From positions 1 through 24,442 of the forward strand of contig CAZEWU010000002.1 of NCBI GenBank assembly GCA_964516155.1: a stretch of 24,442 bases of DNA, read 5' to 3'. This document shows positions 3,196 through 21,366 of this stretch, one piece after another. This DNA comes from an uncultured Caldisericota bacterium (GTDB lineage Bacteria > Caldisericota > Caldisericia > Cryosericales > Cryosericaceae). Under the pieces are notes generated by a model. That model was not told the origin of the DNA. It did not search any database and saw only the letters and a list, made by a program, of their open reading frames with translations. Position 1 is the first letter of the stretch. Each line of letters opens with the position of its first letter. A program made the position numbers and the translations under genes.

Positions 3196-3747
3196 ATGGC
3201 TGAAGAAATAAGGCTTCAACGCAGCGGCGCAGTCGTTCTCTGCGTACCGGGCGATGCCGCCGGCTACATTGATATGTTCCGCCGCCGGTACGATCCTCAT
3301 GTGGCGCAGATCATGCCGCATATCACGCTGGCGTTTGCCACCGAGCTTGACACCGTGACGTGGCAGGCGGCGCGGCGGCATGTCCAGGATACTCTTGCCG
3401 GCCTGTCCCCGTTCACGATCAGTGTTGCGGAGACCGGCACCTTTGAAGGCGGCGAGCCCGTCCTGTGGCTCAGGCCCCGCGACAGCGCCGGGGAGATACT
3501 CATGTTGCGGCAGACAGTCCTGCAGGCATTTCCACATATCCGGTTTGACCGGCCGGACGATTTTGTGCCCCATATCTCGATCGGGTTCTTCAGGACGCAG
3601 AAAGAGCTTGCCGGTGCAGAACAGGCGGTTCGCCGTGAACTGCGGCCGTTCTCTTTCCGTGTTGCCTTCGTCTCCTTCCTGTATGCCGGCGAGAAGGACA
3701 TCTGGAAGTCTGTTGACGCCCTGGAACTGGGGAACGGGGGTCGCTGA
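3196..3747 (+). CDS. 2H phosphoesterase superfamily protein, LigT/ThpR-like RNA 2',3'-cyclic phosphodiesterase
   Basis: Two H-x-T/S-x motifs ('HITLAF' and 'HISIGF') at LigT-like spacing. The track ORF starts at 3034, but the first plausible start is ATG 3196 ('MAEEIRL...'). The upstream 54 codons would overlap the divergent fabZ gene. Confidence 0.7.
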   Translation: MAEEIRLQRSGAVVLCVPGDAAGYIDMFRRRYDPHVAQIMPHITLAFATELDTVTWQAARRHVQDTLAGLSPFTISVAETGTFEGGEPVLWLRPRDSAGEILMLRQTVLQAFPHIRFDRPDDFVPHISIGFFRTQKELAGAEQAVRRELRPFSFRVAFVSFLYAGEKDIWKSVDALELGNGGR

Positions 3748-3776
3748 CGCCCGGTTCCGGGACCGTCGTCAGCGAC
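3740..3776. other. compound stem-loop (10-bp perfect inverted repeat GTCGCTGACG / CGTCAGCGAC with a structured 17-nt loop) spanning the ligT-like stop codon; no U-tract
   Basis: Read directly from the sequence. Confidence 0.4.
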
Positions 3777-3910
3777 GGACGGCCCTTCCTGCATGCATCT
3801 GCCCTTCCTCATGAGAGACGATCAGCGGGTCCTGTGGGAAAAAACATGTGGAAAACGGGAAGGCGTACAAAAATATAACGGCGGCATCAATGAAAAGAGT
3901 CTTCTCTTCT

Positions 3911-3919
3911 TGTGGATAA
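3911..3919 (-). promoter_or_regulatory. perfect DnaA box (TGTGGATAA = complement of TTATCCACA)
   Basis: Exact 9-mer match to the DnaA-box consensus TTATCCACA. Confidence 0.5.
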
Positions 3920-4009
3920 CCTGTCAGCATAGTGCCATGCGCCTTTCCTGAAAGCCTGCAGACGATCTGTTAAAGGGATGTTCAGGATACCGAAGAGTCC
4001 GCTTCAGAA

Positions 4010-4018
4010 TGTGGATAA
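4010..4018 (-). promoter_or_regulatory. second perfect DnaA box (TGTGGATAA), same orientation, 99 bp from the first
   Basis: Exact 9-mer match. Two identical AT-rich 9-mers within 110 bp of a ~60% GC genome. Confidence 0.5.
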
Positions 4019-4030
4019 CTTGGAAGATAG

Positions 4031-4063
4031 ATTGTGACTGCTGTCATCACAATTGTGATGACA
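4031..4063. repeat. nested palindromes: ATTGTGA-N8-TCACAAT overlapping a perfect 22-bp palindrome TGTCATCACAA|TTGTGATGACA
   Basis: Read directly from the sequence. It lies 15 bp downstream of the rlmH stop, in the convergent intergenic region. Confidence 0.6.
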
Positions 4064-4077
4064 CACGGACGACCGGG

Positions 4078-4539
4078 TCACTTGTCGTACGGTTCGCCCT
4101 TCAGGATGGAAAATGCACGGTACAGCTGTTCCAGAAGAATGACCCTGGCCAGCTCGTGGGGCAGGGTCAGCTTGCCAAACGAAAGGATGCTGACACCGGG
4201 CGACAGAGGGCGGTTGCTCTTGTTCTGCTCGATGAACGGCTGGAGGACCGGACTGAATCCCTCGGCGCCCCCGATGAAGAACAGGAGCTTGCGCGTCCCC
4301 ATGTTCATCAGTCCCTGCAGACGCTCGGCGAAGTCGTGGGACGAGAGTTCCTCTCCGCGTGCATCCAGCAGCACACGGACGCACTCCTCGAACCGGGCGT
4401 ATCCGGCAAGCTGGTGCGAGGAAGCATCGATGACGCTCACCTCGCAATAATGCTGGAGGCGACGGCTGTATTCATCCTGAGCTGCCTTGTTGTATGACTT
4501 CTTAAGCCCGCCGCCCTGGGCGCAGATAACGATTTTCAT
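4078..4539 (-). CDS. rlmH: 23S rRNA (pseudouridine1915-N3)-methyltransferase RlmH (SPOUT family)
   Basis: 'MKIVICAQGGGLKKSY...' N-terminus and a C-terminal 'HELARVILLEQLYRAFSI' typical of RlmH. The track ORF begins 43 codons upstream; the canonical start is ATG 4539. Confidence 0.9.
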   Translation of the reverse strand: MKIVICAQGGGLKKSYNKAAQDEYSRRLQHYCEVSVIDASSHQLAGYARFEECVRVLLDARGEELSSHDFAERLQGLMNMGTRKLLFFIGGAEGFSPVLQPFIEQNKSNRPLSPGVSILSFGKLTLPHELARVILLEQLYRAFSILKGEPYDK

Positions 4540-6881: not shown

Positions 6882-7799
6882 ATGTATGCAATGATTGTGC
6901 ACGGTGGCGTCGGCGCTGTTCCTCATGAAAAAGAACAAGCGACGATCGCAGGGGTCAGGGCCGCAGTCCTGGCGGGAAAAAATATTCTGGCGGCCGGCGG
7001 CTCCTCGGTAGATGCCGTCGAGGCGGCCATCAATGTCCTGGAAGACGATCCGACGTTCAACTCCGGTACGGGTTCTGTGCTCACCTTTGACGGAGAGGTT
7101 GAGATGGACGCGGCCGTTGCTTACGGTCCCAGGCTCGGGTTCGGCGCCGTTGCCGGTATCAAGAATATCCAGCACCCCATTTCCCTGGCACGCATGGTCA
7201 TGGAAAAGACCGATCACGTCCTGCTGCAGGGAAGCGGCGCGCAGGAGTTCGCGCGCATGATGGGCGTCCCAACTCATTGTCCGGTCACCGAGGAACGCCG
7301 CGCGCAGTGGCGTGCATACCGTGAGAAATTCCTGCGCGGCGACGCCGGCGACTGGCCGAAACTCAGACTGCTGATGAAGGAGCATCCTGAGTTCATGCAT
7401 GGCACGGTCGGCGCCGTGGCCGTCGATGCAGACGGCGCTGTGACTGCAGGGACATCCACCGGCGGCGTTTTCCTCAAACTGCTCGGACGCGTCGGCGATA
7501 CGCCGCTTCCAGGAGCGGGGACCTATGCGACCGCTTTCGGCGGCGCTTCCTCCACCGGCCTGGGAGAAAGCATGATGCGGACCCTCATCACCAAAACGGC
7601 CTGCGACTTCATGCGGATGGGACTTGACGCCCAGGGAGCGGCTTCCGGCGCCGTTGACATGCTGACCAACACACTGGGGTCGGAGGCAGGGATCATTGTC
7701 GTCGACCGCTGCGGCGGCATCGGATTTGCACACAATTCCACCCAGATGGCGCATGCGTTCATGCAGGAGGGGATGACCGAGCCGACCGCAAGCCTGTAA
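6882..7799 (+). CDS. isoaspartyl peptidase / L-asparaginase (Ntn-hydrolase, plant-type asparaginase family)
   Basis: 'IVHGGVGA' N-terminus and autoproteolytic nucleophile context 'HGTVGAVAVD'. A 'GAGTYAT' box is present in the C-terminal part. Confidence 0.85.
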   Translation: MYAMIVHGGVGAVPHEKEQATIAGVRAAVLAGKNILAAGGSSVDAVEAAINVLEDDPTFNSGTGSVLTFDGEVEMDAAVAYGPRLGFGAVAGIKNIQHPISLARMVMEKTDHVLLQGSGAQEFARMMGVPTHCPVTEERRAQWRAYREKFLRGDAGDWPKLRLLMKEHPEFMHGTVGAVAVDADGAVTAGTSTGGVFLKLLGRVGDTPLPGAGTYATAFGGASSTGLGESMMRTLITKTACDFMRMGLDAQGAASGAVDMLTNTLGSEAGIIVVDRCGGIGFAHNSTQMAHAFMQEGMTEPTASL

Positions 7800-16544: not shown

Positions 16545-17036
16545 TCTCATGGACTGCTGCTGTGCCGCTGCCGCCTCAGCCTGGACGCAGTCGATGGCCA
16601 GCACGACCGCCAGCGCCGTGACAGCATCTCCCGGGTCGGCGATGTCCAGGACATAGCAGTCGCCCCAGGTCAGCCACTCCTTGTGGATCGCGGCGACTTC
16701 ATGCCCTTCCCGGGAGATGGAATAGTCGTGCGCGAAGAAATCCCCTTCAACGTCCCATCCCAGGCCGTCGATCGTATACCGGGAACGGAACAATGTAAAT
16801 TCCTTGACGATCTCCGCCACCTGAACGCCGTTCACCCAGACAGAGAACCGGGGCAGGAAGGACAGGACCTTCTGCTGGACAAGAGCGACCTCCTGACCGG
16901 CAGGATCCGTGATATGAAGCTTCTTCCCGAAGGAGAAAAACTCTCCTTCCACGTAATAGCAGTCATGATCGCCCTCGTCCCAGACGCGGAATCTGTCGGT
17001 CCAGGAAAAGACCTTCTGTTTAATGATCAGACGCAC
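16539..17036 (-). CDS. LURP-one-related / tubby C-terminal-like protein (DUF567; B. subtilis YxjI-like)
   Basis: The pattern 'IKQKVFSW.D.F.V.DE.G...YYVEG..FSFGKKLHI.D..G.EVA' followed by a second half-barrel repeat is characteristic of the LOR family. The track start (17045) is GTG directly after a TGA. GTG 17036 has GAGGTG 6 nt upstream. Confidence 0.6.
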   Translation of the reverse strand: MRLIIKQKVFSWTDRFRVWDEGDHDCYYVEGEFFSFGKKLHITDPAGQEVALVQQKVLSFLPRFSVWVNGVQVAEIVKEFTLFRSRYTIDGLGWDVEGDFFAHDYSISREGHEVAAIHKEWLTWGDCYVLDIADPGDAVTALAVVLAIDCVQAEAAAAQQQSMRH

Positions 17037-17104
17037 CGCAAGCACCTCACAAGTTTTATATGGCGTGGACCGTTGTTCCTTAAACTATACTCCGTTTATG
17101 TATT

Positions 17105-17158
17105 TGCCTCTTTTCCATTTCTTTCCATATCCATAACGCGACAGGAGAGAATTCACTG
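17105..17158 (-). repeat. copy A of the ~55-bp direct repeat, about 70-120 nt upstream of the LOR gene start
   Basis: See copy B. Confidence 0.5.
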
Positions 17159-17356
17159 AAACTCTTTCCTTGCACTGACATGACGAAGTACCTGTCAAAC
17201 GCCTGAAGCCAAGTCAGCGAATCACAGAGACAGCGCCCTCCCTGGTTCGCTGCCCACGCCGGTTGCTGTTAAGCTGCATCGTCATCATCTGATTGCAGGA
17301 CGGCCCCCGTTACCAGCGCGCTATCTCTGTGGGCGATACCGGAGACAAGATTCAGA

Positions 17357-17387
17357 AAGGCCGTGACGAAAAAACAGTCACGGCCTT
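17357..17387 (-). terminator. putative terminator hairpin (11-bp stem AAGGCCGTGAC / GTCACGGCCTT, 9-nt loop) about 65 nt downstream of dfx; the trailing U-tract is weak
   Basis: Perfect stem read from the sequence. On the minus strand it is followed by TCTGAATCTTG. Confidence 0.4.
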
Positions 17388-17451
17388 CTGCCGACGATCT
17401 GCCAGGGAGAAGAATGTTATATCTTCATCCTCCTCGTTACCCAGTCGTTAT

Positions 17452-17826
17452 CTAAAAGTCAGCCTTCCAGAGGCCATGGATATTGCAGTAAGCGTACACG
17501 GTGCCGGAAACGGCCTCGGCAAATTCTGCTCCGGGTTCCATACCGGGCGTCAGGAATACGATGTCAACCTTGTTGCCGGTCACAAGAGCGATCCACTCGA
17601 TATGATGCTCCGGCAGCATGGGGTGCGGCGTCGATCCAACCACGACCTTGATCTTGCCATTCTCTCTGGTGATGACCGGGACGTGTTTTTCCCGTGAGGC
17701 ATCGGTCGAATTCGCCTTAAGCTCCGTCATCGCCTGACCGCAGCAGGTCAGCGTTCCGCCGCCCTTTTTGAGCAGGGCCACCATATTGCCGCACTTCTCA
17801 CAACGATAAAAAGCGATATCAGACAT
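17452..17826 (-). CDS. dfx: desulfoferrodoxin (2Fe superoxide reductase, Dfx)
   Basis: N-terminal desulforedoxin domain 'YRCEKCGNMV...LTCCG' and a C-terminal neelaredoxin domain with 'HHIEWI' and 'CNIHGLW'. AGGAGG lies 8 nt upstream of ATG 17826 ('MSDIAFY...'). Confidence 0.9.
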   Translation of the reverse strand: MSDIAFYRCEKCGNMVALLKKGGGTLTCCGQAMTELKANSTDASREKHVPVITRENGKIKVVVGSTPHPMLPEHHIEWIALVTGNKVDIVFLTPGMEPGAEFAEAVSGTVYAYCNIHGLWKADF

Positions 17827-17893
17827 CTTTGTACCTCCTCTGTCAAAAATCATCAAACATCAGTATAACCAGCGTTACGCGACATCATGATCT

Positions 17894-18709
17894 TCATGCA
17901 AAGACAACAATGGCCTGTCTGCGTTTGATGCGGAGCAGAACAGTCTCAAGCACACGCAGACTATAGTTCAGATTTTTCTGTTCCAGGTAGGCGGTTGTGA
18001 TGTCCTGTCCGATCACCAGGTCCATATTTCTCGAATCGGAACAGACAAGGACGGCCTTTCCCTTGCCCAGCACCGGCGTCCTGAAAACATGTCCGTCCAG
18101 CAGCTTGTTCACCCGGTCGATCTCCAGCAGACCGGTTCCCTGCTGTATCCGCTGCATCTGCATATACAGGTCCGGACTGACGGAAAGAGCATACGTCCCG
18201 TAAATGCTTTTCCCCGCCAGCAGTTCGATCGCAGAAGCGATATCGGTGAAGGCATTCTCCCCGGATGCCCAATCTTTTCTGGTGATCTTGCCGGTCCCGG
18301 ACGCCGTCAACAGACCTTCATAGCCGAGTCTCGCGTTTCCCGAATAGATCAGCTTGTCTTCGTTGAGCGCGCATGTTTCCGCCGAAGCCATCACTTTTGA
18401 AAGGTCCACAGGATACCCTGACTGTCTGCTGTTTTCAAGGTCCCGTGCCAGCAGCGTAACATCATCGTAAATGATCGGTATCTCTGCAAGCTTCCGGCCT
18501 CTGGTCGTGATGACGCCGTCTTTTGCAGCCTCGTCAACAGCATCGCTGTCATCGATCTGGACGCTTTCCACTCCGACGCCCAGCGGCCCGAAAATGTGCA
18601 GAAAACGCCGGCCGGACAGGACATTGCGAGCCGTCTCCGTCACAGCGGAATCGATCTGTCTCCACAGCTCCGCAGGTATTGAAGAGGATTCTCTGGATAA
18701 ATAACTCAT
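17894..18709 (-). CDS. family 1 encapsulin nanocompartment shell protein (HK97 fold, Linocin_M18/CFP29 family)
   Basis: The 271-aa protein aligns end-to-end by eye with T. maritima encapsulin: N-terminal 'ELWRQIDSAVTETARNVLSGRRFL..FGPLG', C-terminal 'LVIGQDITTAYLEQKNLNYSLRVLETVLLRI' versus '[31 protein letters not shown]'. RBS GGTGGAGG precedes the start. Confidence 0.85.
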   Translation of the reverse strand: MSYLSRESSSIPAELWRQIDSAVTETARNVLSGRRFLHIFGPLGVGVESVQIDDSDAVDEAAKDGVITTRGRKLAEIPIIYDDVTLLARDLENSRQSGYPVDLSKVMASAETCALNEDKLIYSGNARLGYEGLLTASGTGKITRKDWASGENAFTDIASAIELLAGKSIYGTYALSVSPDLYMQMQRIQQGTGLLEIDRVNKLLDGHVFRTPVLGKGKAVLVCSDSRNMDLVIGQDITTAYLEQKNLNYSLRVLETVLLRIKRRQAIVVFA

Positions 18710-18727
18710 ATCTGTGCCTCCACCAGA

Positions 18728-19108
18728 CTACGCTTCTTTATCGCTGATCATACTGCCCACAGTCTCCGGGCCGGCAACATCCGATTTCTGCTCCGCCGGA
18801 GGTTCCGTTCCTCCCGGCTCGTTAAGCATGGTCCTGACTTCCTCTTCACCGGAAGCAAACAGTTCGGCTTCTCTGGGGTCCAGTGCGGTAAGCAGGGTCA
18901 TCAATTCCCCGACGTGGGCCTTTTCTTCGTCACGGATATCAGCAAGGACCTTTTTTGCCATTTCATTGTCCGTGGCCTGAACATGTGCGTCATAGAGGTA
19001 GATAGCTTCCAGTTCACCCGCGATATCCAGACGGACCGCCTGGATCAGTTCCTTCTTCGTCAACTGTCGGTTGACATTGCCTTGGAAAGGATTTGCAAAA
19101 GCTGGCAT
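18728..19108 (-). CDS. encapsulated ferritin-like protein (EncFtn/Flp) cargo with a C-terminal targeting-peptide-like tail
   Basis: Di-iron ligand pattern 'GELEAIYLY ... DEEKAHVGEL' (E...ExxH). A Gly/Pro/Glu-rich linker is followed by a C-terminal 'ETVGSMISDKEA' resembling the TVGSLI-type encapsulin cargo-loading peptide. AGGAGG precedes the start, and the gene lies 18 nt upstream of the encapsulin gene. Confidence 0.8.
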   Translation of the reverse strand: MPAFANPFQGNVNRQLTKKELIQAVRLDIAGELEAIYLYDAHVQATDNEMAKKVLADIRDEEKAHVGELMTLLTALDPREAELFASGEEEVRTMLNEPGGTEPPAEQKSDVAGPETVGSMISDKEA

Positions 19109-19313
19109 CTCTTCAACCTCCTTTTACTGCTCTTGATAAAGAGACTATTTCCAGAATGTCTCTCGCCTCTCAATGAGAGCCGGCTCTGTTCTTCAGACCG
19201 CCGTCACACTCATCGATACGCTGTCAGCAAGCGGTGACAGAAATTCGTGGAGGAAGTGTCCACGCAATGTTCCATGGACCTCCAGATTATGTTTCAACTC
19301 CTTATCTATATGT

Positions 19314-19342
19314 ATTTTACATTATTCATACATTTAAATCAA
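19314..19342 (-). promoter_or_regulatory. sigma-70-type promoter for the EncFtn-encapsulin-dfx operon: -35 TTGATT, 17-nt spacer, -10 TAAAAT (minus strand)
   Basis: Near-consensus hexamers with ideal spacing. The predicted transcription start gives a ~200-nt leader, which contains an ATGTAT-N12-ATACAT inverted repeat across the -10 and two more inverted repeats downstream. Confidence 0.55.
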
Positions 19343-19396
19343 CACTGAAACCGCACTTTTCCGGAAGCGACGGACATCAGTCCGGGGTTTCCCGGA

Positions 19397-19615
19397 TTAC
19401 TTCTCTTTCTCATACGCCAGGAGATCGCCCGGCTGGCAGTCCAGCGCCCTGCAGATCTTCTCCAGCGTCTCTAACCGTATGGCGCGCGCCTTCCCGTTCT
19501 TGAGGATGGAGATGTTCGCCATGGTGATCCCCACTTTCTCCGACAGTTCGGTAACACTCATCTTTCGTTTTGCCATCATGACATCCAGCGTCACATTGAT
19601 CGCCACAGGGATCAC
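19397..19615 (-). CDS. XRE/Cro-C1-family HTH transcriptional regulator, YozG-like
   Basis: 'DVMMAKRKMSVTELSEKVGITMANISILKNGKARAIRLETLEKICRALDCQPGDLLAYE' is the stereotyped YozG-type sequence. GTG start 19615 overlaps the stop of the upstream DUF2975 gene (translational coupling). Confidence 0.85.
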   Translation of the reverse strand: MIPVAINVTLDVMMAKRKMSVTELSEKVGITMANISILKNGKARAIRLETLEKICRALDCQPGDLLAYEKEK

Positions 19616-19616
19616 C

Positions 19617-20096
19617 TCAGATCGTCAGATCGTTGTCTGTTTTCAACGCATATCCCTTCTCCACCCAATGCGACAGCACCGCTGCAACGAGGGAGACCCC
19701 CAGTCCTCCGACCTCGAGGAAAAAGCAGGCGATCAGAAGCCCGGGGTGCAGCCTGTTGGAAAAGAAGAAGACGTTACTCACCACAAAGCACAGCACCGTG
19801 TCGGACAGCGCAAGCCAGCTGATAGACTGCAGGGACCGCGAGACAGGACGGGAGAACGAGCGGTCCCTGCCGATCTCGCAGCAGATCTTCCAGAGATTCC
19901 CCAGGGCCAGGTAACAGGGAACCGCGGCAATCCAGATCCAGATCACATAGGACCGGAACAGGTAAGCAAGGTCAGGAAAAGACCGTCCGAAATCCCTGCC
20001 CATGCCGGGGATGATATAAAAGAAGAAAGCGGTTGCCAGCGCCGTTACCAGAACTGTGATGCATTTCAGCCATCGCGCCAGTTGCGACTGTTTCAT
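19617..20096 (-). CDS. DUF2975-family small membrane protein (partner of YozG-like regulators)
   Basis: A ~160-aa protein with 4 hydrophobic segments, immediately upstream of and coupled to the YozG-like gene, as in the widespread DUF2975-HTH pairs. AAGGAGGTG precedes ATG 20096. Confidence 0.65.
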   Translation of the reverse strand: MKQSQLARWLKCITVLVTALATAFFFYIIPGMGRDFGRSFPDLAYLFRSYVIWIWIAAVPCYLALGNLWKICCEIGRDRSFSRPVSRSLQSISWLALSDTVLCFVVSNVFFFSNRLHPGLLIACFFLEVGGLGVSLVAAVLSHWVEKGYALKTDNDLTI

Positions 20097-20403
20097 AGAG
20101 CACACCTCCTTGTGGGTCGTGTGTTCTCACTATATCGGTATATTATCGTTTTTCAATATGTATTTATTGTATGTCGATATTCCAGCAGTGCCTCAGCCTC
20201 TGTCGCACATGTATTCCAAAGACCACTGTCAGAGCAGAGAGATCATCTGATGCGGGATGTGTCCAGTCGGAAGGGTATGGACACCCCTCATCTCTCAGGC
20301 GAGAGTGCGACCGGGGACGACCCTGCGTCAACATTCGACATCTGCACCCGCCGGCATCTGCCGATTGCTCTCATCAGGAACCTTCTATGAAAAGAGGCCG
20401 TAC

Positions 20404-20434
20404 CCAGGATCGGATACAGCCCCATAAAATCTTG
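20404..20434 (-). repeat. degenerate copy of the hairpin element found at 21515..21541 (GAGGCCGTACCCAGG-atc-GGATACAGCCCC), located 25 nt downstream of the rpe-family gene
   Basis: Shared flank and arm sequences with the perfect copy (aaag-GGCyGTACCC...TACAGCCC), by manual alignment. Confidence 0.4.
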
Positions 20435-20458
20435 AAAGGTCAAGCTTCTTCAAAAACG

Positions 20459-21130
20459 CTAGGCCAGGTATTCCCTCAATTCCCTGCAGTTCTCCGCATA
20501 GGTGTGACCGGGACGGAACGCCGTCTTGGTCCCCAGCACCAGGATGTCGGCTCCCTGTTTGACGACCTGACGTGCATCATTAAACGTAAGGCTCCCGTCC
20601 ACCTCTATCGAGACATCCTGTCTTCCATGCTCGTCCAGCATCTTGCGTGTTCTGGCGATCTTGTCCAGGATCTGACTGTCAAGTTCCGGTTCCGGTACAG
20701 TGAAATTGCGTATCATCAGATTTACCATGTCGACATACGGGATCAACTCCTCCAGCACACTGAGGGGAGTGCCTGGATTCAACGTCACTGCCGGCCTGCC
20801 ACCAGCGTTCCGCACCCTTTTGAGAAGAGATGTGATCTGCATGGTCGTCTCTATCTGGATATCGATGCAGGAATTCTTGCAGTATGGCAAGAAAGCATCC
20901 AGGAGATGAGCAGGCCTTCCGACTGAAATATGAATGTCCAGCGGAATAGCCGTAGCCGCGCAGATGGCGGGAATCAGTTTCGGCGACATCAGGATTGTCT
21001 CGCCATAACTTGTATCCAGGATATCGATATGAAGCAGGTCAACCTTCGCTTCTTCCAGCTTCCCGAGCTCGGATCCCAACGCCAGCCAGTCTGCGCGTTC
21101 AATAGAAGGAGCTAGTCTGATCTTAAGCAT
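20459..21130 (-). CDS. ribulose-phosphate 3-epimerase family protein (Rpe / allulose-6-phosphate 3-epimerase-like TIM barrel)
   Basis: 'MLKIRLAPSIERADWLALGSELGKLEEAKVDLLHIDILD' matches the Rpe N-terminus, with His/Asp metal-ligand spacing. The track ORF begins 51 codons upstream and out of context. Confidence 0.8.
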   Translation of the reverse strand: MLKIRLAPSIERADWLALGSELGKLEEAKVDLLHIDILDTSYGETILMSPKLIPAICAATAIPLDIHISVGRPAHLLDAFLPYCKNSCIDIQIETTMQITSLLKRVRNAGGRPAVTLNPGTPLSVLEELIPYVDMVNLMIRNFTVPEPELDSQILDKIARTRKMLDEHGRQDVSIEVDGSLTFNDARQVVKQGADILVLGTKTAFRPGHTYAENCRELREYLA

Positions 21131-21149
21131 ATTCTCTTCACCATCCCCG

Positions 21150-21366
21150 CTAGTGCAGGTATGCACGCAGCGCGTTGCAGCGTTCCACGACGGAAACACC
21201 AGGCTGATAGATGCTTTTTGTCCCCAGGACAAACACGCTGGCACCCGCCTCTTGCGTGCGGCGAGCCACGTCAAACGAAACACCGCCGTCTACTTCGATC
21301 GGAACATCCTGCCTTCCGTGCTCATCCAGCATCTTCCGTGCCCGTGCCACCTTGGTCAGCAGCTGG
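21150..21366 (-). pseudogene. truncated paralog remnant: C-terminal ~70 codons of a second rpe-family gene, with its own stop, directly upstream of the intact copy
   Basis: The encoded 'SQLLTKVARARKMLDEHGRQDVPIEVDGGVSF...VLGTK' is about 65% identical to 'SQILDKIARTRKMLDEHGRQDVSIEVDGSLTF...VLGTK' of the intact gene. DNA similarity ends abruptly at about 21366, in a TATAAT that carries an in-frame TAA. Confidence 0.6.

Follow-up and report, generated by a model that had tools for sequence, protein, structure and literature searches.

The subject of this work is the gap between two converging genes in a 24,442-bp stretch of DNA (the window) from a Candidatus Cryosericum-like bacterium, and a conserved element of roughly 220 bp within that gap which is built around boxes for the initiator DnaA. 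The gap separates a LigT/2'-5' RNA ligase-like gene from rlmH, the gene for the 23S rRNA pseudouridine1915 N3-methyltransferase, and it is long and locally AT-rich, as the initial annotation of the window had stated, with a GC content of 0.51 at positions 3801-4200 versus about 0.58-0.62 in the flanks. The features of the locus are given below; the element is read in the rlmH-sense direction, and identity figures for its parts, here and throughout, are mean pairwise identities across nine lineages retrieved through the RlmH protein.

3196-3747, plus strand: LigT/2'-5' RNA ligase-like gene, the convergent neighbor (Pfam 2_5_RNA_ligase2, E = 8.9e-28)
3748-4077, 330 bp: intergenic gap between the converging LigT-like gene and rlmH
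3833..4053, minus strand: whole conserved element (dyad, box 1, 99-bp interval, box 2, boxes 3 and 4), from nine-lineage and 36-locus alignments
3833..3841, minus strand: DnaA box 4, TTTCCCACA, two mismatches, 14 bp past box 3; identity 0.62
3847..3855, minus strand: DnaA box 3, TTTTCCACA, one mismatch, 64 bp past box 2; identity 0.86
3911..3919, minus strand: DnaA box 2, TTATCCACA, perfect; identity 0.93
3920..3929, minus strand: near-invariant TGCTGACAGG, directly 5' of box 2; identity 0.98
3955..3966, minus strand: semi-conserved motif ATCGTCTGCAGG (CGTCTRCRG); identity 0.73 versus 0.42-0.47 in the adjoining spacers
3990..4009, minus strand: palindrome slot adjoining box 1, a 14-16-bp (C)TGCAACCGGTTGCA(G) in most relatives
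4010..4018, minus strand: DnaA box 1, TTATCCACA, perfect; identity 1.00 in the nine lineages
4031..4053, no strand: conserved dyad ATTGTGA-N9-TCACAAT with an inner palindrome TGAC-N4-GTCA (4035-4046)
4042..4063, no strand: 22-bp perfect palindrome TGTCATCACAA/TTGTGATGACA, seen in the window
4078-4539, minus strand: rlmH (Pfam SPOUT_MTase, E = 5.7e-32)

An exact search of the window bears out the two perfect, same-orientation DnaA boxes of the initial annotation: TGTGGATAA occurs at 3911-3919 and 4010-4018, both on the plus strand, and nowhere else in the window, where dinucleotide-preserving shuffles give a mean of 0.06 perfect boxes and none of 100 shuffles reaches two. However, there are four boxes and not only two, with TGTGGAAAA at 3847-3855 (one mismatch) and TGTGGGAAA at 3833-3841 (two mismatches) in the same orientation. 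All four fit within 186 bp, clustered far above chance, and with at most one mismatch allowed the window holds nine matches versus 2.5 expected, three of which are inside the gap. The arms of the dyad, ATTGTGA (4031-4037) and TCACAAT (4047-4053), are nine nucleotides apart and not eight as first described. The 22-bp palindrome that had been reported with it is present in the window but is not conserved in relatives, where only the nested dyad is kept: its outer arm (4054-4063, plus strand, read first in the rlmH sense) is an extra inverted copy specific to the window, and it is absent from all of the relatives that were aligned with the exception of a 5-nt trace in L099.

Conservation and distribution of the element

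A protein search with RlmH gave 13 clusters of 74-100% identity, and the window RlmH is 78-81% identical to proteins of Candidatus Cryosericum and Caldisericota metagenome-assembled genomes (MAGs; L003-L005). The unbiased set for comparison consists of nine lineages found through the RlmH protein, independently of the element (the window, L003, L004, L005/L097, L083, L087/L088, L093/L094, L095/L096, and L099), and the alignments were built from the DNA 3' of the rlmH stop codon. The RlmH orthologues are 73-86% identical, and in all nine distinct lineages the element lies directly 3' of rlmH, starting 44-127 nt past its stop codon. Its order is the dyad TTGTGA-TGAC-N4-GTCA-CAAT, 10-14 nt, box 1 (GTTATCCACA), in most lineages the palindrome CTGCAACCGGTTGCAG, then CGTCTRCRG, TGCTGACAGG, box 2 (TTATCCACA), box 3 (TTTCCACAGG), 5 nt, and box 4 (TATCCACAGG). 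Box 2 follows box 1 at exactly 99 bp in each of the nine lineages and in 36 of 36 metagenome loci, box 3 follows box 2 at 64-65 bp and box 4 follows box 3 at 14 bp, and every box has the same orientation; the edge-to-edge gaps between neighboring boxes are 90, 55, and 5 bp, with a mean of about 50 bp. The spacers keep their length while their identity (0.39-0.53) is the same as that of the third codon positions of rlmH (0.53), a pattern that reads as a footprint of discrete, putative binding sites between neutrally drifting spacers of constant length.

Conservation is not confined to the two perfect boxes. The arms of the dyad have identities of 0.91 and 0.95 versus 0.59 for its 4-nt center, and the columns of both arms, like those of the 10 nt beside box 2, are invariant in alignment A1. 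Box 2 itself varies as CTATCCACA in L005/L097 and as TTACTCACA in L095, and box 4 is TATCCACA in most relatives. Box 3 is lost or replaced in some metagenome lineages (e.g., L102, L106, L125, L129, and L187), and several lineages show deletion or replacement of boxes 3 and 4, which leaves the dyad and boxes 1 and 2 with their 99-bp interval as the core of the element. The palindrome slot next to box 1 has diverged in the window and in L093, and the arm changes in the TGCAACCGGTTGCA palindrome are one-sided only, with zero compensatory pairs.

The element is a single locus. A metagenome scan with a 19-nt pattern for the box-2 context (TGCTGACAGRYTAYYCACA) gave 92 matches, of which 36 are the element, each with a perfect box 1 exactly 99 bp upstream; the other 56 have neither box 1 nor the dyad and are chance matches. 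All 36 lie directly past rlmH, converging with a ligT-like gene, wherever the flanks are on the contig, which argues for a vertically inherited locus; a mobile or repeated element is rejected by this constant position at the 3' end of rlmH. Among 57 partly redundant Cryosericum-like loci, 456 kb in total, 98 perfect copies of TTATCCACA were counted, every one of them inside the element. On the 1.317-Mb contig Ga0247841_10000001, the element is located at about 0.80 Mb. The initial annotation had named, as grounds for giving up its reading, a 9-mer frequent at the chance rate and a palindrome that is not conserved in related genomes; what was found is a box that is confined to the element, and boxes and a nested dyad that are conserved. 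No further copies of the dyad (TGTGA-N9-TCACA) or of TGCAAC-N2-GTTGCA were found in the 18 Cryosericum-like sequences scanned (4.7-24 kb each), and a candidate dyad regulon was rejected, the look-alike in L093 falling inside the start of the GGDEF coding sequence and not being conserved in the window. A general feature downstream of rlmH was likewise rejected, with none of 77 loci from other phyla having at least two boxes within 400 bp past rlmH. Within the group, a sister lineage (L090-L092), whose RlmH is 74% identical, is without the element and keeps the GGDEF-rlmH-(Cys-rich)-ligT synteny. The element is real, under purifying selection, and specific to one lineage.

Neighboring genes and other sites

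The synteny in relatives consists of a gene for a GGDEF cyclase, rlmH, the gap, and the ligT-like gene on the opposite strand, converging with rlmH. A metagenome contig (L001) is identical to the window sequence, and its ligT-like gene was called as 183 aa. Many lineages have an extra gene for a Cys-rich protein of 76-81 aa between the gap and the ligT-like gene (L083:10901-11137, L087:10769-10999, and L095:5054-5299, all on the minus strand), and it is in most relatives that this gene stands between the element and ligT; the window is without it, the gene having been lost from the window lineage. The N-terminal half of the protein is zinc-ribbon-like (CxxC...CPxC), its C-terminal tail is rich in Cys and Gly (e.g., ...SCSCGGSGCSSCGGC), and the L083 copy has no Pfam match. 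In L087 the gene has a strong sigma-70-like promoter (TTGACA ... TATAAT; L087:11040-11125), which is closely preceded by a TGTGA-N8-TCACA dyad resembling that of the element. The sister lineage without the element has, on the opposite strand between its Cys-rich and ligT-like genes, the sequence TTGCTGACAG-acgaa-GTTATTCACAA (L090:7095-7165), and TCGTCCACA and repeated TTCACAAC motifs are found nearby. This sequence resembles a box-2 module with a 5-nt insertion and may be a relocated remnant of the element or a different operator.

Weaker boxes occur at other places. At positions 8-38 of the window, just before or inside the 5' end of a carboxyltransferase (CT_A_B) gene, are two one-mismatch boxes in opposite orientation, TTATCAACA at 8-16 and TGTGGAAAA at 30-38. 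Three one-mismatch boxes (TTATCAACA, TTGTCCACA, and TGTGGAGAA) lie within 66 bp at L097:1641-1706 (the same as L005:641-706), which is another convergent gap, between a GHMP kinase gene and an asparaginase gene, and this site is found in that lineage only. The asparaginase gene is intact in the window (6882-7799) and in L087, and is divided into three open reading frames (ORFs) in L083/L085/L086 (L083:6609-7526) and into two in L084, probably as a pseudogene or by a sequencing frameshift. Across the stop codon of the ligT-like gene in the window (3740-3776, plus strand) is a perfect 10-bp inverted repeat, GTCGCTGACG ... CGTCAGCGAC, with a 17-nt loop; no T-run follows it and it was not called in the terminator scan, and it may be a factor-dependent 3'-end hairpin. 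Further away, the GC content falls to 0.47-0.55 at 16800-21200, versus about 0.6 elsewhere in the window, in a region with an encapsulin shell gene (Linocin_M18; 17894-18709, minus strand) and several ORFs without Pfam matches that may be a horizontally acquired island.

A candidate DnaA-binding locus

Based on the comparative data presented here, we propose that the element is a lineage-specific, non-origin DnaA-binding locus of Cryosericum-like bacteria, a reading to which we assign a probability of about 60%. DnaA is by far the likeliest ligand because two perfect and two weaker copies of its near-universal box are present in a single orientation, and the boxes are among the most conserved bases; that DnaA binds to the element thus seems very probable. 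Spacers of fixed length and neutral sequence point in turn to a higher-order protein-DNA complex of defined geometry. In the proposed mechanism, the two consensus boxes, held exactly 99 bp apart, would bind DnaA with high affinity and would nucleate its binding at the two weaker boxes of the same direction that lie 64 and 78 bp beyond. One or two other DNA-binding proteins would occupy the TTGTGA-N9-TCACAA dyad and, in most lineages, the TGCAACCGGTTGCA palindrome beside box 1, where they would take the place of IHF. The complex would then modulate the DnaA pool or its nucleotide state, as is the case with E. coli datA and the B. subtilis DnaA-box clusters, and the blocking of read-through transcription between the convergent genes would be a likely side effect or second role. 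We infer the binding of DnaA and of accessory proteins, and an effect on replication timing, from the architecture of the element, and control of the DnaA pool or state as the function under selection has, in our estimate, somewhat less than an even chance of being correct.

We adopt a nucleoprotein locus of this type because spacers that are fixed in length and free in sequence match the signature of oriC, datA, and DARS, and because the layout is like that of datA, the E. coli locus of datA-dependent DnaA-ATP hydrolysis. In E. coli the boxes of datA, DARS, and oriC and their spacing are conserved and the spacers are variable, and the function of datA depends on how far box 2, the IHF site, and box 3 lie from one another (PMC4585315). 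With its four boxes, datA occupies intergenic DNA immediately past a transcription unit and is tuned by read-through transcription (PMC10950094). The element is likewise a non-origin, intergenic, and dispensable locus directly past a transcription unit (PMC10950094, PMC4585315), with about four boxes of presumably mixed affinity over roughly 200 bp, conserved boxes and spacing, variable spacers, strong boxes at a constrained distance (here exactly 99 bp), and a putative site for another DNA-binding protein between or beside the key boxes. In contrast to datA, it has no IHF consensus, its predicted accessory sites being the dyad and the palindrome at comparable positions, and there is no sequence homology to datA, which is from a different phylum.

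The other known systems each share some of these properties. Like DARS1 and DARS2 of E. coli, the latter of which uses IHF and Fis, the element is a short, non-origin box cluster with conserved boxes and spacing. The DARS core is reported (Fujimitsu et al. 2009) to have boxes I and II close together in opposite orientation. The boxes of the element, by contrast, are all co-oriented with the strong ones 99 bp apart. In B. subtilis one DnaA-box cluster lies where the 3' ends of gcp and ydiF converge, and a second one is beside yydA, which is rlmH (PMC2533591). The element is similar to these in being an intergenic box cluster outside oriC and, as in gcp-ydiF, between convergent 3' ends, in adjoining the same gene as the yydA-yycS cluster, and in having RNA-modification or ribosome-maturation genes as neighbors (PMC2533591, PMC3245932). 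However, the yydA cluster precedes rlmH, in the region where a divergent gene pair has its promoters, and represses rlmH, whereas the element is downstream. Stably bound B. subtilis clusters lie close to oriC. By the criterion of Ishikawa et al. (2007), four boxes in succession are on average about 4-21 bp apart, with an A value above 0.3 (PMC2533591), a density that exceeds that of the element. The DnaA box at the asnC terminator of E. coli, where RNA polymerase is impeded (PMC10950094), is also at the 3' end of a gene, but that site is simple and near oriC, whereas the element combines four boxes at fixed distances with accessory dyads. The element has in common with a bacterial oriC a co-oriented box array with conserved spacing, but not an unwinding element, a skew switch, or origin-type synteny, and it is absent from a sister lineage. 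The element is best classed as a non-origin DnaA-box cluster with a datA-like dispersed layout. A non-origin DnaA-box cluster was also the leading option of the initial annotation, and it is now favored by the conserved boxes and spacing and by the single locus, with an architecture that is closer to datA.

Several points weigh against this reading. The box density is low, with a mean gap of about 50 bp versus 4-21 bp in the stably bound clusters of B. subtilis, and the formation of a stable DnaA oligomer is thus not guaranteed. The IHF consensus WATCAANNNNTTR was not found between the boxes on either strand in 12 sequences. L090-L092 are without the element and several lineages are without boxes 3 and 4, and the function is therefore dispensable. 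The dyad and the 10 near-invariant nucleotides that adjoin box 2 show that the principal role may belong to proteins other than DnaA. It should also be noted that DnaA binding is predicted, for a lineage that is uncultured.

Alternative explanations and the link to rlmH

In one alternative explanation, DnaA and a dyad-binding protein, bound just past the stop codon of rlmH, would halt RNA polymerase that leaves rlmH or enters from the convergent gene, and the element would be a roadblock or insulator that ties 3'-end formation or expression of rlmH to the status of replication. This explanation is compatible with the DnaA-binding locus that we propose. In its favor, the gap (3748-4077) has no intrinsic terminator-like site on either strand, and the rlmH stop codon is the constant anchor of the element, the other flank being either the Cys-rich gene or ligT. 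There is precedent in E. coli, where DnaA at the asnC terminator and at box 2 of datA impedes transcription (PMC10950094), and in B. subtilis, where yydA is repressed by DnaA (PMC2533591). Nevertheless, one or two boxes would be enough for this purpose, and the 99-bp spacing, the four boxes, and the accessory sites suggest a larger complex; in addition, insertions of 13-80 nt are tolerated between the stop codon and the dyad, and the lineage without the element retains the same convergent layout. We consider a roadblock as the main function to be unlikely. Less probable still is an operator array for one or more other transcription factors, in which GTTATCCACA would resemble a DnaA box by coincidence and the relevant ligand would be something other than DnaA. 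It is true that conservation extends beyond the 9-mers to TGCTGACAGG beside box 2, the dyad, and the palindrome, and that TGTGA/TCACA half-sites are also found upstream of the promoter of the Cys-rich gene in L087. But two perfect and two near-perfect matches to a near-universal DnaA box, all in one orientation, would be improbable for an unrelated factor, no regulator gene is nearby, and a convergent gap offers no promoter to regulate.

A chromosomal oriC, or one half of a bipartite origin, is the reading that we regard as having hardly any chance of being correct, even though the relative AT-richness of the intergenic region and the conserved spacing of its four DnaA boxes speak for it. In five lineages (the window, L083, L087, L097, and L005), the GC skew does not change sign from one side of the element to the other over up to 10-20 kb (+0.02 to +0.07 for the rlmH-sense strand), and the rlmH-sense strand, G-rich by 0.02-0.07, is probably the leading one. 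The most AT-rich 20-mers reach only 60-75% AT and do not have a conserved position, so there is no conserved unwinding element, and by eye no DnaA-trio-like 3-nt repeat was seen after boxes 3 and 4. None of dnaA, dnaN, gyrB, parAB, or rpmH is within 10 kb on either side, and the flanking genes converge and do not diverge. Moreover, an origin would not be expected to be absent from L090-L092 with intact synteny, or to lose boxes 3 and 4 in several lineages. The initial annotation had thought an oriC unlikely from the absence of dnaA and dnaN nearby and had suggested a look at the GC skew; the lack of a sign change, of an unwinding element, and of origin genes all agree with its view.

A structured non-coding RNA, a functional 3'-UTR of rlmH, or a small protein gene has scarcely more to recommend it. 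The conserved length could be taken in favor of an RNA or a small gene, the plus strand (antisense to rlmH) folds slightly better than shuffled sequence (z = -2.24), and an ORF of 53 aa (3769-3930, minus strand) runs through boxes 2-4. However, the rlmH-sense strand has a z of -0.54, the RNAalifold consensus is only -6.7 and -12.3 kcal/mol over 247 columns with covariation terms of -0.08 and -0.82 kcal/mol and a double change in just two pairs, and an Rfam search gave no match above threshold. The ORF was rejected as a gene: it is interrupted by a stop codon in L005 and lacks an ATG in both L003 and L004, and the boxes are its only conserved "codons". No sigma-70 promoter or intrinsic terminator was found in the gap, and a manual look revealed no conserved -35/-10 pairs around the dyad and box 2. 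The operator for an unannotated small RNA that had been raised at the outset is thus left with no conserved promoter, no consensus RNA structure, and no covariation.

DnaA boxes and rlmH are also found together elsewhere. In six Acidobacteriota MAGs (four labelled Pyrinomonadaceae/Pyrinomonadales, one Chloracidobacterium, and one "Acidobacteria" only), rlmH is preceded, at a distance of about 3 kb, by a tight array of co-oriented TTTTCCACA/TTATCCACA boxes with spacings mostly of 11-12 and 23 bp (L061:1061-1883, L017:450-493, L026:620-788, L042:1022-1076, L056:488-531, and L075:1117-1160). In L061, the sole locus that was inspected in detail, the array falls within about 800 bp of AT-rich intergenic DNA that precedes an obg-nadD-rsfS-rlmH-dksA operon. 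This array could be an oriC or a DnaA-regulated promoter, and it echoes the DnaA-box clusters of B. subtilis at the yqeG operon and yydA.

For the element, we tentatively raise the possibility, which is far from assured, that Cryosericum-like bacteria independently evolved a DnaA control locus of the datA/DARS type that is tied to rlmH, in which a complex of fixed geometry would form on boxes 99 bp apart with accessory proteins. If so, a third phylum would show the association of ribosome-maturation genes with DnaA-box clusters, after B. subtilis (yydA and the yqeG operon) and Blastocatellia; if the element is merely a transcription roadblock, it would be an ordinary regulatory site. The recurrence of DnaA-box clusters near rlmH-containing units in three phyla deserves a systematic look. 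The kind of locus is already known, and what distinguishes this one is an unusually clean footprint in an uncultured, deep-branching group. To our knowledge, regulatory non-origin DnaA-box clusters have been studied mainly in a few cultured models such as E. coli and B. subtilis. With its invariant boxes, neutral spacers of fixed length, and additional dyads, the element provides a ready substrate for asking how general the control of the initiator by chromosomal sites is, which accessory proteins replace IHF and Fis in the Cryosericum-like lineage, and whether the coupling of DnaA to ribosome-maturation genes such as rlmH is a widespread theme.

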